Shown piece after piece: positions 58,779 through 62,950 of a stretch of DNA of 64,000 nt (its first letter is position 1; each line of letters starts with the position of its first letter). The DNA is from Waterburya sp. (GTDB taxonomy: Bacteria > Cyanobacteriota > Cyanobacteriia > Cyanobacteriales > Xenococcaceae): NCBI GenBank assembly GCA_965217895.1, contig CBDCJV010000002.1:2784001-2848000 (forward strand), written 5' to 3'. The translations under genes were made by a program, and so were the position numbers. A model generated the notes under the pieces. That model did not search any database. It saw only the letters and a program-made list of their open reading frames with translations, and had not been told where the DNA came from.

Positions 58779-60005
58779 ATGGATGTAGAATTACAGATTC
58801 TTAAACATTTGAAAAGAGATGCTCGACCAACAGTTTCTGTCATCGACAAATATTGCTCTGCTTACAATGACTTGTTTTCTGATGTGAGAAGTTACGAATG
58901 TTTCAAATATTTACATCAAGGAATCATCTCACCAATCAAAAGGAAATCACTACCAGAGATAGCAAAGGTAGTAGGGATAAACTCACCGCAATCATTACAT
59001 CATTTTTTAGCCAATTCACCTTGGTCAGCAACAAAATTAAAAGAAAAAAGATTAACTCTAACTTTAGAAGCTTTAAAAAATCAAAAAATTAAAGTCATAA
59101 TCGATGAAACGGGAGACAGAAAGAAGGGAAAGAGAACAGATTATGTAGCTAGACAATATTTAGGTAGTGTCGGCAAAATAGACAACGGAATAGTATCAGT
59201 AAATGCTTATGGAGTTTATGAAAATATAACTTTTCCCTTGATTTTTAAAGTCTTCAAACCCAAAGGAACATTGAAAGAGGTAGACAACTACAAAACTAAA
59301 ATTCAGCTAGCCTCATCTATTATTACAGAACTAGTGGAATTTGGATTTAATATTGATTTGGTATTAGCGGATAGTTTGTATGGCGAAGCTAGTTCATTTA
59401 TTAGAACATTGGATAAACACGACCTACCTTGGGTTCTAGCAATTAGAAGTAATCACGGTGTTTGGCTGTCTTCTGAGCAAAAGGTTAGAGCCAATAAGTG
59501 GTGTAAATTCAAGAGAATTTTTAGTGACCAAAAAGCGGTGCGACCCCGCGCCGACGTAAGGCGCAAGGGAACGCGCACCAAGACATCTGAAATCAGATAT
59601 ATCAGAGAGATAATTTATGGCAAACGAAATAGAAAAACTTATTGGGAAATAACTACTGACACTGAAACTATGCCAGAGAATTCTACTTCTTTCGTAATGA
59701 CCAATATTCAAGCAACCCGAAGTCAAATGAAAAAGACTTTGGGCAATTTATACAGATTAAGAACGTGGGTTGAATATGGATTTAGACAATGTAAACAAGA
59801 ACTGGGATGGACTGATTATCGATTTACTAATTTTTCAGAGATTAATAAGTCTCTAAATAACTTCCGTTTAATCATTCAGCCAACAATTCTTTTCTGGATG
59901 ATTGTTCCTTGGTTAGAAGTCTTTCCCAACCGTTCTTTATTACTTGGTTTTCATCAATTGATTGCTGTAATGAATCAATTTTATTTCTCTTTTCCTGATG
60001 GGTAA
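58779..60005 (+). CDS. IS701 family transposase, probably defective
   Basis: IIDETGDRKKG, QYLGSVGKIDNG, LADSLYG, VEYGFRQCKQELG; carries a 17-aa insertion and an apparent C-terminal internal deletion. Confidence 0.88.
   Translation: MDVELQILKHLKRDARPTVSVIDKYCSAYNDLFSDVRSYECFKYLHQGIISPIKRKSLPEIAKVVGINSPQSLHHFLANSPWSATKLKEKRLTLTLEALKNQKIKVIIDETGDRKKGKRTDYVARQYLGSVGKIDNGIVSVNAYGVYENITFPLIFKVFKPKGTLKEVDNYKTKIQLASSIITELVEFGFNIDLVLADSLYGEASSFIRTLDKHDLPWVLAIRSNHGVWLSSEQKVRANKWCKFKRIFSDQKAVRPRADVRRKGTRTKTSEIRYIREIIYGKRNRKTYWEITTDTETMPENSTSFVMTNIQATRSQMKKTLGNLYRLRTWVEYGFRQCKQELGWTDYRFTNFSEINKSLNNFRLIIQPTILFWMIVPWLEVFPNRSLLLGFHQLIAVMNQFYFSFPDG
59534..59584 (+). repeat. 51-bp small dispersed mobile repeat, copy 2 (in-frame in the transposase)
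   Basis: Near-identical to 27671-27721. Confidence 0.85.
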
Positions 60006-60017
60006 ATTCTGTTTTTG

Positions 60018-61057
60018 CTACTCCTTGATTTCGGAGAGTGACAGAACAGGGTTAAGTACCTGGGCAAAATTAATTGTATATTTTGTGCCGAAATTTTTTA
60101 AAACCTTTTCGACATACTCAACTAAATTTTTCCAGCTCAAGTATGCCTCCGTTTCAATCCACTCATATTTCATAAATCTCCAGAGAATCTCGCTCAAATT
60201 AAGTTGTGGTGAATAGGTCGGAAACCAGAATATTTCCAATTTTTTCTGTCTCCATTCTGTGATTTTTTTCTGAAAAGCTTTGCTTCGATGAATGGGAGCA
60301 TTATCTATAACTATTACTGTGAGTTTTTTGATTTTTTGAACATATTGGTCGAGAAATTTTATCACGATATCACTATTGATTTTGCATTCAAAAATATAAG
60401 ATTCTAATTCATTATTTCTATTGAGTAAACCTAGGACATTTAATCGTTTACTTTGTTGACTTTTTAAAGCTTCTTTCTCTCTAGATGCTTGCCAGGCGTA
60501 AGGTACATATGGTGTCAAACAAAACCCAGTCTCATCCAAATATCTTAAGTCTAGAGTTCCTTGTTCTGATAGTCTTTTTAAGCCTGCCAATATCTTTTTT
60601 TTCTCTCGTACAACTCTGGTTCAGGTTTTCCTCGAACTGTTTTTCTCAATCTTTTCCATTTCATTCCCAGACACTTTAAAACTCTCTTAATTGTGTCTTT
60701 ACTTGCTCTGATACCCCATTTGCTGCAAATTTTTTCTTGAACCACTACTAAGTTTTTAGGGGTTTCTTTTACCCAGTCTTTAATAATTTTCTGTTGCTCT
60801 TTATCAAAGATTTTTTTTCGTCCTTGACCTTCACGATTATATAGTCCAACTAAGCCTAGCGATTCCCAATTATTCAGCCAATTGTAAATTGTGTTCCGAC
60901 TGACTTTAAATATTTCCATCAACTCGCAAATTCGATATTTTTGATGAGAAAGTAAAATACAATGGCTTCTTTGCCTTACTTGATAGTATTTACTCTGTTG
61001 GTAAATTCTTTTTAAGAGTTTAATAGTATCTTTTGTTAAACCTTTGATATATCTCAT
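60018..61057 (-). CDS. IS630 transposase split in two ORFs (HTH 60578-61057; DDE 60018-60590) joined by a -1 frameshift
   Basis: YLDETG, VIDNA, YSPQLN..E; A8G run at 60594-60602 at the ORF junction. Confidence 0.85.
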
Positions 61058-61191
61058 TTAAGATTTATTCTCCTTTTCACTTTCTTGAGCGATCGCCACA
61101 GAACATTTGGCGATCTTTCGAGGATAACTCCCTCAATATAATCCTCTCAAACTTTCTTAAAAATATACAAATAATTTTGTTTGAGTACTTA
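60053..61191 (-). mobile_element. IS630 family insertion sequence
   Basis: TIRs TAAGTACCTGGGCAAAATTAAT / (revcomp) TAAGTACTCAAACAAAATTATT with TA ends. Confidence 0.85.
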
Positions 61192-61242
61192 TTTAGTTAC
61201 ACAGCACTGATAATCTTTTTGGCTTAAATCTAGATACCTTAA

Positions 61243-61419
61243 TATCAGATAGGCGATCGCATTCCTGGAACTATAGGAAAGGTTGTCAGCAAAACTTATT
61301 CATATCAAGGTAAATGGGTTTACTGCATTGCTTTTGATGAAGGCTTTTTAACCATCACAGAAAATGATATTGATGTATCAATCATCTCCCGTATTAAAGC
61401 CAAAAAAATAACCGCCTGA
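61243..61419 (+). pseudogene. Small gene remnant (SH3/KOW-like start P*YQIGDR)
   Basis: 58-codon open frame YQIGDRIPGTIGKVV...W.Y preceded by in-frame TAA; next to the IS630 end. Confidence 0.35.
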
Positions 61420-61700
61420 TGAGTATCGTCATGTGGACAGGCGATCAAAACATTTAGATGTATGAATGTCGCGGTGGTGTCCAAAGCCAACGTATGGGTA
61501 TAGTTTGGGCTTTTGTACGGAAATAAGCCAGTAGTTTATTAACTGTATTTAAGCAGTTGACTCAGAGCTTTCAACTTTCATAAGCCAAGATACTCATTAA
61601 AAATCGCGAGAATAGCGTGCTTTTAGAGGGAAGAAAGCTTGATGTATCGAGCTTTCGGGAGTTTCGTAAGCCAGACCGCGATTATTTTTCCTTAACTCTT
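61410..61700 (+). ncRNA. Candidate IS110 bridge RNA region
   Basis: Nested stems around an internal loop containing TTAGAGGGAA, identical to 62925-62934; three GRGCTTTY-N7-9-RTAAGCCA units. Confidence 0.55.
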
Positions 61701-61707
61701 AGTATAT

Positions 61708-62928
61708 ATGAATCGAATAGTAGGTTTAGATGTCGGTCGTGGATCGGCTGTTTTCTGCTGCCTTGATGAATTTCCCAGCAATATTCTACAGCATTACCAA
61801 AAGTTAGTTAAAGAGAAAAAATTTTATAAAGCTAATTGTTCTAGAACTGGTGTAGAAAAACTACTTTCACTATTGCCTGATGGCATAGTAATTGAACCAA
61901 CGGGCTATTGGTATTCAGAATTTTGGGTGACGGTCGCCAAAGCCAACGATCTTAAAATCTATTGGATAGGACACACAGATTTGAAAGGTCAACGCACTCA
62001 TTACGAATTCACCAACAAGCGGGATGAAGAAGACGCGCTGTGTTTGGCAGCTTGCTATTTCGATCCTAGCTTTATTGACATCAACGGCAACAAAAGGTTT
62101 CTTAGGCTTACCCACAACGAAACAATTAATCTTGTTCGACAATTGTTCCACCAAAAAGAGCAACTGCAAAAATTACGAACTAGTTTAATTCTTCATTTGC
62201 GTCAGAGATTAAGCTTAGAATTTCCAGAGGCAGCGCGTCACACGATGAAAATATCTGACTCAAAAGGCTACACTCCTATCATTTACTGGCTAGCTACCGA
62301 ACAAAAAAATAAACGATACGAGAATAAATATAGTCAGTCAATTGCACCAGAACTAGGAATTAACATTACTAATTACACTCGCGCTCACGCTCAAATTATT
62401 ATTAAAATTGAGGTTCGCATTGTTAAAACCATTTCTCAAATTGCCAAGACAATCGCTTTACCTGAGTTTGATGACTATAACCGCGTGTTTAATAGGTTTT
62501 GTTTTGGGCTTAATACTCGTGCCATACTCCTAGTTCACGTTTTCCCTATCAATAGATTTTTAGTTAATGAAAAACCATTGGTAGAATATGAACCACGTAA
62601 AGGCAAATTACAAAAGCGTAATCGCTCCTTACGTAAGTTTCAGGCTTATTTGGGATTGTCTTTCAGTTATGAAATATCTGGCAATAGCAAAAAGCGTAAA
62701 TTTCATGGCTCATCTTTAGTTCGTTCTCATCTTTATGGATGGGCTTTATGTTTGGTTACTCGCCAAAAAAATATTATTGGTGGTCAAATTGGTCAAAAAA
62801 TTAGCGATCGCTATCATCATCTAAAGCAAACAGTAAAAGGTAAAGATAGTATCACCAGAATATTGTTCAAGGTAACGCGAATGCTTTTCTATGAATTAGT
62901 AAATGAAATTTATAACAAAAAAGATTAG
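61708..62928 (+). CDS. IS110 family (DEDD RuvC-like) recombinase, divergent
   Basis: IVGLDVG, IEPTG, KRDEEDA acidic motifs; C-terminal AYLGL...EISG putative catalytic Ser region. Confidence 0.8.
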
Positions 62929-62950
62929 AGGGAAAAGTTTCACAAATACA

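Follow-up and report, generated by a model that had tools for sequence, protein, structure and literature searches.

What kind of RNA precedes the IS110-family recombinase gene near the end of the window, and how would it be made inside a large element? The window is the whole stretch of DNA that was analysed, 64,000 nucleotides of contig C2 of a Waterburya sp. genome (G000). A preliminary description had listed three repeated units with constant flanks and variable cores upstream of the gene, at 61507-61530, 61565-61587 and 61649-61673. It had read them as a three-loop or mini-array guide RNA, possibly with two target specificities, in a divergent cyanobacterial clade. Here a different reading is preferred, with a probability of roughly 0.7. 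A two-loop bridge RNA and its recombinase, located at the right end of each member of a family of prophage-like elements of 10-16 kb, would form a module for RNA-guided integration and excision, and the transcript would be cut by a hammerhead ribozyme.

The best reference systems are IS621 and ISCro4 (PMC11208160, PMC11208158; PDB 8wt6, 9t56). The present locus resembles them in the RuvC DEDD and Ser-Gly site, in a two-loop RNA upstream of the gene with the target loop before the donor loop, and in the 2-nt core. The variable target loop, the conserved donor loop, the discontinuous pairing of the right donor guide and the circular intermediate are also alike. In contrast, the protein studied here has 406 aa, the core is AA and the element measures 10-16 kb. 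Its RNA is internal, far from the left end and without a junction promoter, a natural hammerhead lies 5' of it, and in the close family the right end is at or just after the stop codon.

Four guide half-units and a divergent recombinase

The unit pattern GCTTT-N9-12-AAGC occurs at 489 sites on contig C2 (248 + 241), and the window locus is the only place on the contig with at least three such units inside 200 nt. The three units are thus real and cluster beyond chance. Their count was nonetheless too low, as a fourth unit of the same type at 61617-61640 had been overlooked. Its core, TTAGAGGGAA (61623-61632), has an identical copy at 62925-62934, across the stop codon of the recombinase gene. 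When the RNA is folded with the four cores kept unpaired, two stem-loops are obtained, each with one internal loop that holds two cores. Each unit is therefore half a loop and not a loop of its own. Without the constraint, the folding shows modest stability (z -2.2).

On this basis, the units are read as the four guide half-units of a standard two-loop IS110 bridge RNA. The predicted RNA (61471..61683, plus strand, as are all features of the module) starts at the predicted ribozyme cut and is drawn as far as the base of the donor-binding stem. Units 1 and 2 make up the target-binding loop, within a stem-loop at 61494..61597 that has a basal helix (61494-501/61590-97) and two inner helices (61508-12/61582-86 and 61525-28/61567-70). 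The core of unit 1 is the left target guide (61514..61522), which ends in the AA core and is supported by junction matches in homologs, and the core of unit 2 is the right target guide (61572..61579), whose reverse complement matches the right flank in homologs. The fourth unit and unit 3 make up the donor-binding loop, within a stem-loop at 61602..61683 with a basal helix (61602-08/61677-83) and a hairpin (61634-42/61647-55). The fourth unit provides the left donor guide (61623..61632). The core of unit 3 is the almost invariant right donor guide (61656..61664), which pairs with the left end of the element with one base bulged. The right donor guide GGGAGTTT goes with element ends beginning ACCCC, and GGGAGATT/GGGTGATT go with ends beginning TCCCC. 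The basal helix of the target loop is retained despite sequence change in 15 homologs. Covariation of the handshake guides, inspected by eye, gave no consistent pattern.

The preliminary description had also pointed to a perfect 9-bp pair (61419-27/61589-97) enclosing units 1 and 2. The pair exists, but it is no conserved helix. When the bases of this region were shuffled 500 times, 11.8% of the shuffles had a long-range perfect pair of at least 9 bp, and the 5' arm (61419-27) is the catalytic core of the hammerhead described below. In the 15 homologs, the 3' arm pairs with its local strand over 7.1 bp on average and with the hammerhead core over 4.3 bp, reaching 9 bp with the latter in the window only. 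The long-range helix was rejected on these three grounds.

The three-loop or mini-array reading, with its two target specificities, now appears highly improbable. The clustering of the units speaks for it, and one distant phage locus has five units before an IS110-like gene. Yet there are four units in the window, and each core corresponds to one half of one junction, which leaves neither a third loop nor a second target specificity. A regular-expression count over 56 loci found two left-type units to be the rule and a third guide pair at no locus.

The five-unit locus belongs to a viral contig (L090:8001-9575). In L090 and in a second viral contig, L125, which are larger phages with head-like genes, a hammerhead, an RNA and an IS110-like DEDD gene lie mid-operon and not at an end. 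The units of the L090 RNA are of the form CTT-N9/10-AG; two cores are identical, and none matches the available L090 DNA. L090 could possibly be a real mini-array at a single locus.

Some further features of the RNA were observed. In the window (61690-61700) as well as in homologs, a sequence complementary to the right donor guide (ACTCCC or ACACCC) is often found some 10 nt upstream of the start codon of the recombinase, and it varies together with the guide in L004 and L022. RNA-RNA pairing at this site may possibly couple guide folding to translation. Among decayed copies, a duplicate of the right target guide unit has taken the place of the right donor guide in L030, and most of the RNA is replaced in L027.

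The recombinase gene (61708..62928) encodes a 406-aa IS110-family bridge recombinase. D8, E63, D106, D109 and S324-G325 are invariant in the 16 aligned homologs, and the DEDD and Ser-Gly residues correspond to those of IS621 (PMC11208158); the catalytic Ser was assigned by motif and not by structural superposition. Both Pfam matches are just below the cut-offs (PF01548, 26.2 bits against 29; PF02371, 21.2 bits against 21.3). The structure model has a pLDDT of 88.8, and its best Foldseek matches are ISCro4 and IS621 (E 4e-8 to 2e-7), at 15-16% identity. A sequence search of the PDB with the protein gave no match. Homologs were found in 21 of 61 genomes of the family and in 40 of 401 genomes of the phylum. 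The 208 homologous proteins include named ones from Pleurocapsa, Xenococcus and other cyanobacteria, so that the clade is indeed divergent and cyanobacterial. A related-locus search of genome contigs and viral contigs found none.

TIGR-Tas was considered as another candidate. In TIGR-Tas systems, dual-spacer repeats form an array, and the Tas protein lacks the recombinase serine. The candidate was rejected, since the locus has a single four-unit RNA, the Ser-Gly is kept, integration junctions are present and TasR ranks below IS110 in Foldseek.

Guides and junctions of the homologous elements

The assignment of the guides was examined in 21 sequences, i.e., 20 homologous regions and the window. 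Six were dropped because the 5' part was missing or the RNA layout different, and 15 were parsed. The left donor guide matched near the stop codon at 6 of 6 positions plus the AA core in all 15 loci; the right junction was placed by this guide alone, so the match is partly by construction. The right flank agreed with the element's own right target guide at 4-5 of 5 positions in 12 of the 15 loci (mean 4.2 of 5), compared with a mean of 1.58 for the guides of other elements. None of 100,000 permutations was as good, a count that overstates the significance because the 15 loci are related. The misses scored 0, 2 and 3 of 5, the score of 2 being that of the window. The complementarity between the core of unit 2 and the right flank, already noticed in the preliminary description, is thus real in kind, as it is that of a right target guide, but it is imperfect in the window copy (2 of 5 in the register of the homologs, 4 of 5 with one A of an A-run slipped).

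The left junction was placed by AA and the right-donor motif with one bulged base; this bulge rule was read from the same data before use and is also known from IS621. The left flank agreed with the left target guide at 6-7 of 7 nt in 10 of 15 loci, compared with a mean of 3.0 for non-own guides. These ten junctions are among the 12 loci with at least 11 kb of upstream sequence and lie 9.8-12.8 kb from the right junction. Three of the misses have less than 5 kb upstream, while L063 and the window are true misses. Two of the ten elements have one target in common.

The pattern extends beyond the close family. From 20 regions of distant cyanobacteria (about 30% protein identity), 15 were parsed. 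The left junction was present in 10 of the 11 parsed loci with 17 kb upstream, and a right junction matching both guides in 8 of 15; the others were parse failures or had no junction within 250 nt. In metagenomes, 16 of 25 loci were examined, and six of the 16 contigs, two of which represent one element, had a closed donor junction directly behind the stop codon. Three of these contigs were terminally redundant with units of 11.9, 12.2 and 14.1 kb, i.e., single-copy circles. A circular intermediate with abutted ends is therefore seen in homologs, other than the window copy.

An empty site was found for paralog B, an intact element of the same chromosome (G000:C2:3,922,313-3,933,790). In the runs X1 and X2, one contig lacks 11,500 bp of paralog B; its sequence resumes at the AA core, and the predicted TTCAA comes next. 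This empty allele stems from one sample, which is possibly the source, and is not identical to the reference flank, so it marks the boundary rather than an excision event. For nine other elements of G000, the search for empty sites gave one that was syntenic but too diverged and three with flanks megabases apart.

Altogether, the four cores predict in homologs both junctions, the closed donor junction and one empty site. These agreements between guides and junctions show that the predicted target loop specifies LT7-AA-RT5, different for each element, and that the predicted donor loop specifies LD-AA-RD. They likewise show that integrated ends read as LT-AA-RD and LD-AA-RT and free circles as LD-AA-RD. 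The check proposed in the preliminary description, namely that flanks should be conserved in homologs while cores vary and match insertion sites, thus came out in favour of a guide RNA for the IS110-family recombinase. The family offers dozens of natural sets of guide, target and donor with a very short donor site.

Two regularities accompany the guides. The base at position -7 is T in each of the ten targets, even where, as in four cases, the guide carries C, and all donors begin with TTA or CTA. Both may reflect a motif read by the protein beside the guides. Moreover, the four guides of a circular contig (L256) are identical to those of an integrated copy from another record (L003/L068), which shows one element in both states.

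The carrier elements and the copy in the window

Judging from gene content and order, the carriers are conserved 10-16 kb prophage-like elements of cyanobacteria. Paralog B has the recombinase, the RNA, the ribozyme and four small genes on one strand, and a Cro-like gene and genes of 245 aa and 120 aa on the other. Its ribozyme, of the G12 type, and its RNA are found near 3,923,815 on the minus strand. It also has a short tyrosine-recombinase gene, as the elements generally do, and a block of unknown genes of which lysozyme is the last. The tyrosine-recombinase gene is a point against the preferred reading. This gene order recurs in homologs, with a Cro-like HTH, lysozyme or M15 peptidase, and collagen fibre. 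The lysis genes match PF00959 in paralog B and PF08291, an M15 peptidase in the place of lysozyme, in the four other elements scanned, and a repressor-like gene matches HTH_3. Another prophage of G000 has structural and lysis genes in common with the carriers and a 469-aa gene at its end, which is read as a tyrosine integrase.

IS110/Piv transposases are known as integrases of filamentous phages, i.e., Neisseria Nf and Thermus Zuza8, Zuza27 and phiOH16 (PMC11437467). In those phages too, an IS110-family gene lies at the provirus end and is thought to integrate and excise it (PMC11437467). In the present elements, a guide RNA is mapped together with the matches of its four guides, and an endolysin is present, whereas inovirus genes were not recognised; in the text available, the filamentous-phage source mentions neither ribozyme nor bridge RNA (PMC11437467).

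Small temperate cyanobacterial viruses, undescribed, widespread and without a recognised capsid fold, may have swapped their integrase for a bridge recombinase with a hammerhead-matured guide, which would be the first ribozyme-matured recombinase guide. For this wider reading, the odds are put at about even. No capsid protein or packaging ATPase was recognised in the carriers, which is why the term virus is an interpretation. A candidate coat protein was folded and gave no clear fold match; a weak atlas lead pointed to the N-terminus of the PRD1 P5 spike (32% of cluster members), and a 221-aa protein had no atlas match.

It is quite unlikely that the carriers are cargo-expanded IS110 elements or helper-dependent satellites and not viruses, in which case the module would work as described. 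Large IS110 elements with cargo have been described, and they share with the present ones the distant ends and the circular forms (10.64898/2026.08.14.744561). The lack of a recognised capsid fold is in line with this explanation, as is the fact that a search of viral contigs by protein patterns gave none. However, the cargo of those published elements is accreted and mostly plasmid-derived (10.64898/2026.08.14.744561), while gene order and content are conserved across families here. The endolysin and the Cro-like gene, the structural genes in common with a prophage that has another integrase, and the single-copy, unit-length circles also argue for viruses. The main text of the cargo study does not contain the words cyanobact-, promoter or ribozyme (10.64898/2026.08.14.744561).

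If bridge recombinases are indeed the dedicated, naturally retargeted integrases of phages, they would handle 10-16 kb of DNA, and each phage would pick its attachment site by altering a dozen RNA bases. The finding further suggests that there is an unclassified group of prophage-like elements in cyanobacteria. For instance, L061, L256, L261 and L068 contain conserved structural genes without family or fold match, and a helix-plus-sheet protein of 76 aa, or 164 aa in doubled form, folds confidently in them and matches nothing clearly. These 10-16 kb carriers are possibly an undescribed virus group.

The copy in the window is best read as a decayed remnant. Its right junction (62925..62941) consists of the left-donor sequence over the stop codon (62925-32), the AA core (62933-34) and the right flank from 62935. 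On the left, a 5'-truncated remnant of a 68-aa gene (61237..61411), which precedes the hammerhead in many elements, abuts the ribozyme with its stop codon. It is joined to 51 bp (61190..61240) of the 120-aa gene that the intact paralogous element carries, which indicates an internal deletion. The lost left part is replaced by DDE transposase genes (58779..61191), one of the DDE_5 type (58779-60005) and a DDE_3 and HTH pair (60018-61057). A genome-wide search for the left junction, with and without the bulge, gave no convincing site. The left donor guide is the only guide of this copy with a full match, and the recombinase frame is open. Relatives have other sequence and another neighbour before the downstream gene, and so provide no empty site for the window copy. 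From its motifs, we take this downstream gene to be ruvB.

A 256-bp transposon piece (window 60936-61191) is duplicated at C2:3,905,668-3,905,923, where it adjoins a gene that in relatives precedes ruvB. Further remnants of elements are found in G000:C2 near 410 kb, 722 kb, 841 kb, 1,762 kb, 2,739 kb, 3,764 kb and 4,439 kb. For three elements, the pair of flanks seen in relatives is separated by 2-2.9 Mb in G000, and remnants occur at several of these points, which suggests that the elements seed chromosome rearrangements. In addition, a 13.7-kb prophage is present twice in G000 (C2:1-15,300, at the contig start, and 3,468,000-3,483,500) with 99.5% identity, either by duplication or as an assembly effect.

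The predicted hammerhead ribozyme and the proposed making of the guide

In IS621, the bridge RNA is transcribed from a promoter that is formed at the circle junction (PMC11208160), and weakly also by read-through (PMC13626964). The IS621-type layout, with the bridge RNA in the left end and a circle-junction promoter, does not occur in the present elements. The right end is about 1.5 kb away from their RNA and the left end 9-14 kb, which is why a junction promoter of this type cannot drive it. Moreover, the junction is downstream of the recombinase and the left end lies behind opposite-strand genes; the RNA would consequently have to come from the small-gene operon. Promoter scans gave nothing above shuffles (8 found, 11.4 expected).

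According to the proposed mechanism, the bridge RNA would be read through from the co-directional operon of small genes. A type I hammerhead between the last stop codon of the operon and the RNA would cut the transcript, and through the cleavage the 5' ends of both bridge RNA and recombinase message would be fixed. The gene switch of the element itself would then govern recombination. If true, this shows how a bridge RNA is made away from the element end, and it means that the genetic switch of the phage controls RNA-guided integration and excision.

The predicted hammerhead fold of the window (61412..61474) rests on consensus and covariation. It comprises stem I (61412-15/61471-74), the core CUGAUGA (61416-22), stem II (61423-46), positions 12-14 (61447-49) and stem III (61450-69), with a predicted cut after C 61470. 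A pseudoknot (61434..61483), based on covariation, joins loop II (61434-39) to the strand 3' of stem I (61478-83). Within the family, the core (C3 U4 G5 A6 N7 G8 A9, G12 A13 A14 A15, U16 H17), three stems and an open stem I are all found. Using a loose pattern, a hammerhead was detected in 46 of 54 upstream regions of homologs, immediately 5' of the RNA, and in 0 of 270 control windows; two further loci, found via the hammerhead pattern itself, were excluded from the 54. A stricter detector that requires pairing found 28 of 42 loci and 0 of 204 controls. Pairs 5 and 6 of stem III, which the filter does not require, are formed in 27 of 27 and 24 of 27 cases with four to five pair types. For the loop II pseudoknot, the mean longest Watson-Crick match across 48 loci was 4.69 nt with the own strand and 3.63 nt after permutation, and 0 of 20,000 permutations reached the own value, bearing in mind that kin are not independent among these loci. 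Loop contacts of this type speed hammerhead cleavage (PMC3088659). In a scan of 12 loci with Rfam, RF03152 scored 35.8, 29.8 and 26.3 bits in three, below the gathering threshold of 56.3, and gave no hit for the window copy.

Type I hammerheads of prophages (PMC3088659; Rfam RF00163, RF03152) have the same core consensus, three stems and a pseudoknot. They, too, are found at the borders of genes in phage operons, in many cases close to an integrase gene (PMC3088659). The present ones differ in scoring below the Rfam cut-offs and in being a single copy fixed before the guide RNA of a recombinase. Stem-I-type hammerheads were indeed common in phages before unrelated small genes (125 stretches), with an IS110-like gene behind them in 2 of 80 loci. 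It could therefore be argued that the ribozyme is an inherited processor of phage mRNA, which tunes the stability or translation of the recombinase message, and that the bridge RNA needs no defined 5' end in order to work. We consider this unlikely. Besides the published and present abundance of such hammerheads, it is favoured by the finding that IS621 can excise from read-through transcripts (PMC13626964). Furthermore, eight of the 54 loci have no detectable hammerhead, and two of these (L212/L237 and L224/L243) keep both junctions, so the ribozyme is not indispensable. On the other hand, 19 of 24 whole elements contain one hammerhead, always before the RNA (none in the other five), and it is always 180-310 nt upstream of the recombinase start, at the 5' side of the RNA. 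The related G000 prophage with the 469-aa integrase-like gene has no hammerhead. Finally, the covarying pseudoknot strand falls within the first 15 nt of the predicted released RNA. These points argue for a ribozyme that serves the guide RNA, which would give one class of prophage hammerheads, so far of open function, a concrete candidate purpose.

Each part of the module has a separate precedent. Natural hammerheads cut the guide RNAs of another RNA-guided phage system, VIPR, but its protein and guide code are unrelated, and it consists of arrays and not of a bispecific recombinase RNA (10.64898/2026.04.26.720920). The processing of seekRNA has been ascribed to the transposase (PMC11187229). 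One paper treats hammerhead, IS110 and bridge RNA in separate sections (10.64898/2026.10.21.760802). No paper that joins a natural hammerhead to a bridge RNA was found in the literature searched; supplements, ISfinder and subscription papers lie outside it and may list members of the clade. Within that literature, the combination of both in conserved 10-16 kb elements appears to be new. The predicted self-processing cassette, with ribozyme, guide RNA and recombinase on one transcript, might be of use in genome engineering, especially in cyanobacteria.

The ribozyme of the window itself deviates at position 12. G12 is present in 45 of 48 loci, including all ten family elements with both ends, while A12 is found in the window (A at 61447), in L002, in L010 and in paralog C. 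The change G12A slows hammerhead cleavage about a million-fold (PMC2553840), and the window ribozyme is probably nearly dead. The window and paralog C have A12 in common though their recombinases are 28% identical, another point for the reading of the hammerhead as an mRNA processor. The A12 copies in the window, in paralog C and in L010 have upstream sequence in common and may go back to one event. In the window (61441-61447), the change from G12 to A turns CGATCG into CGATCA. This would fit deamination at a methylated cyanobacterial CGATCG site, presumably the substrate of a methylase for such sites.
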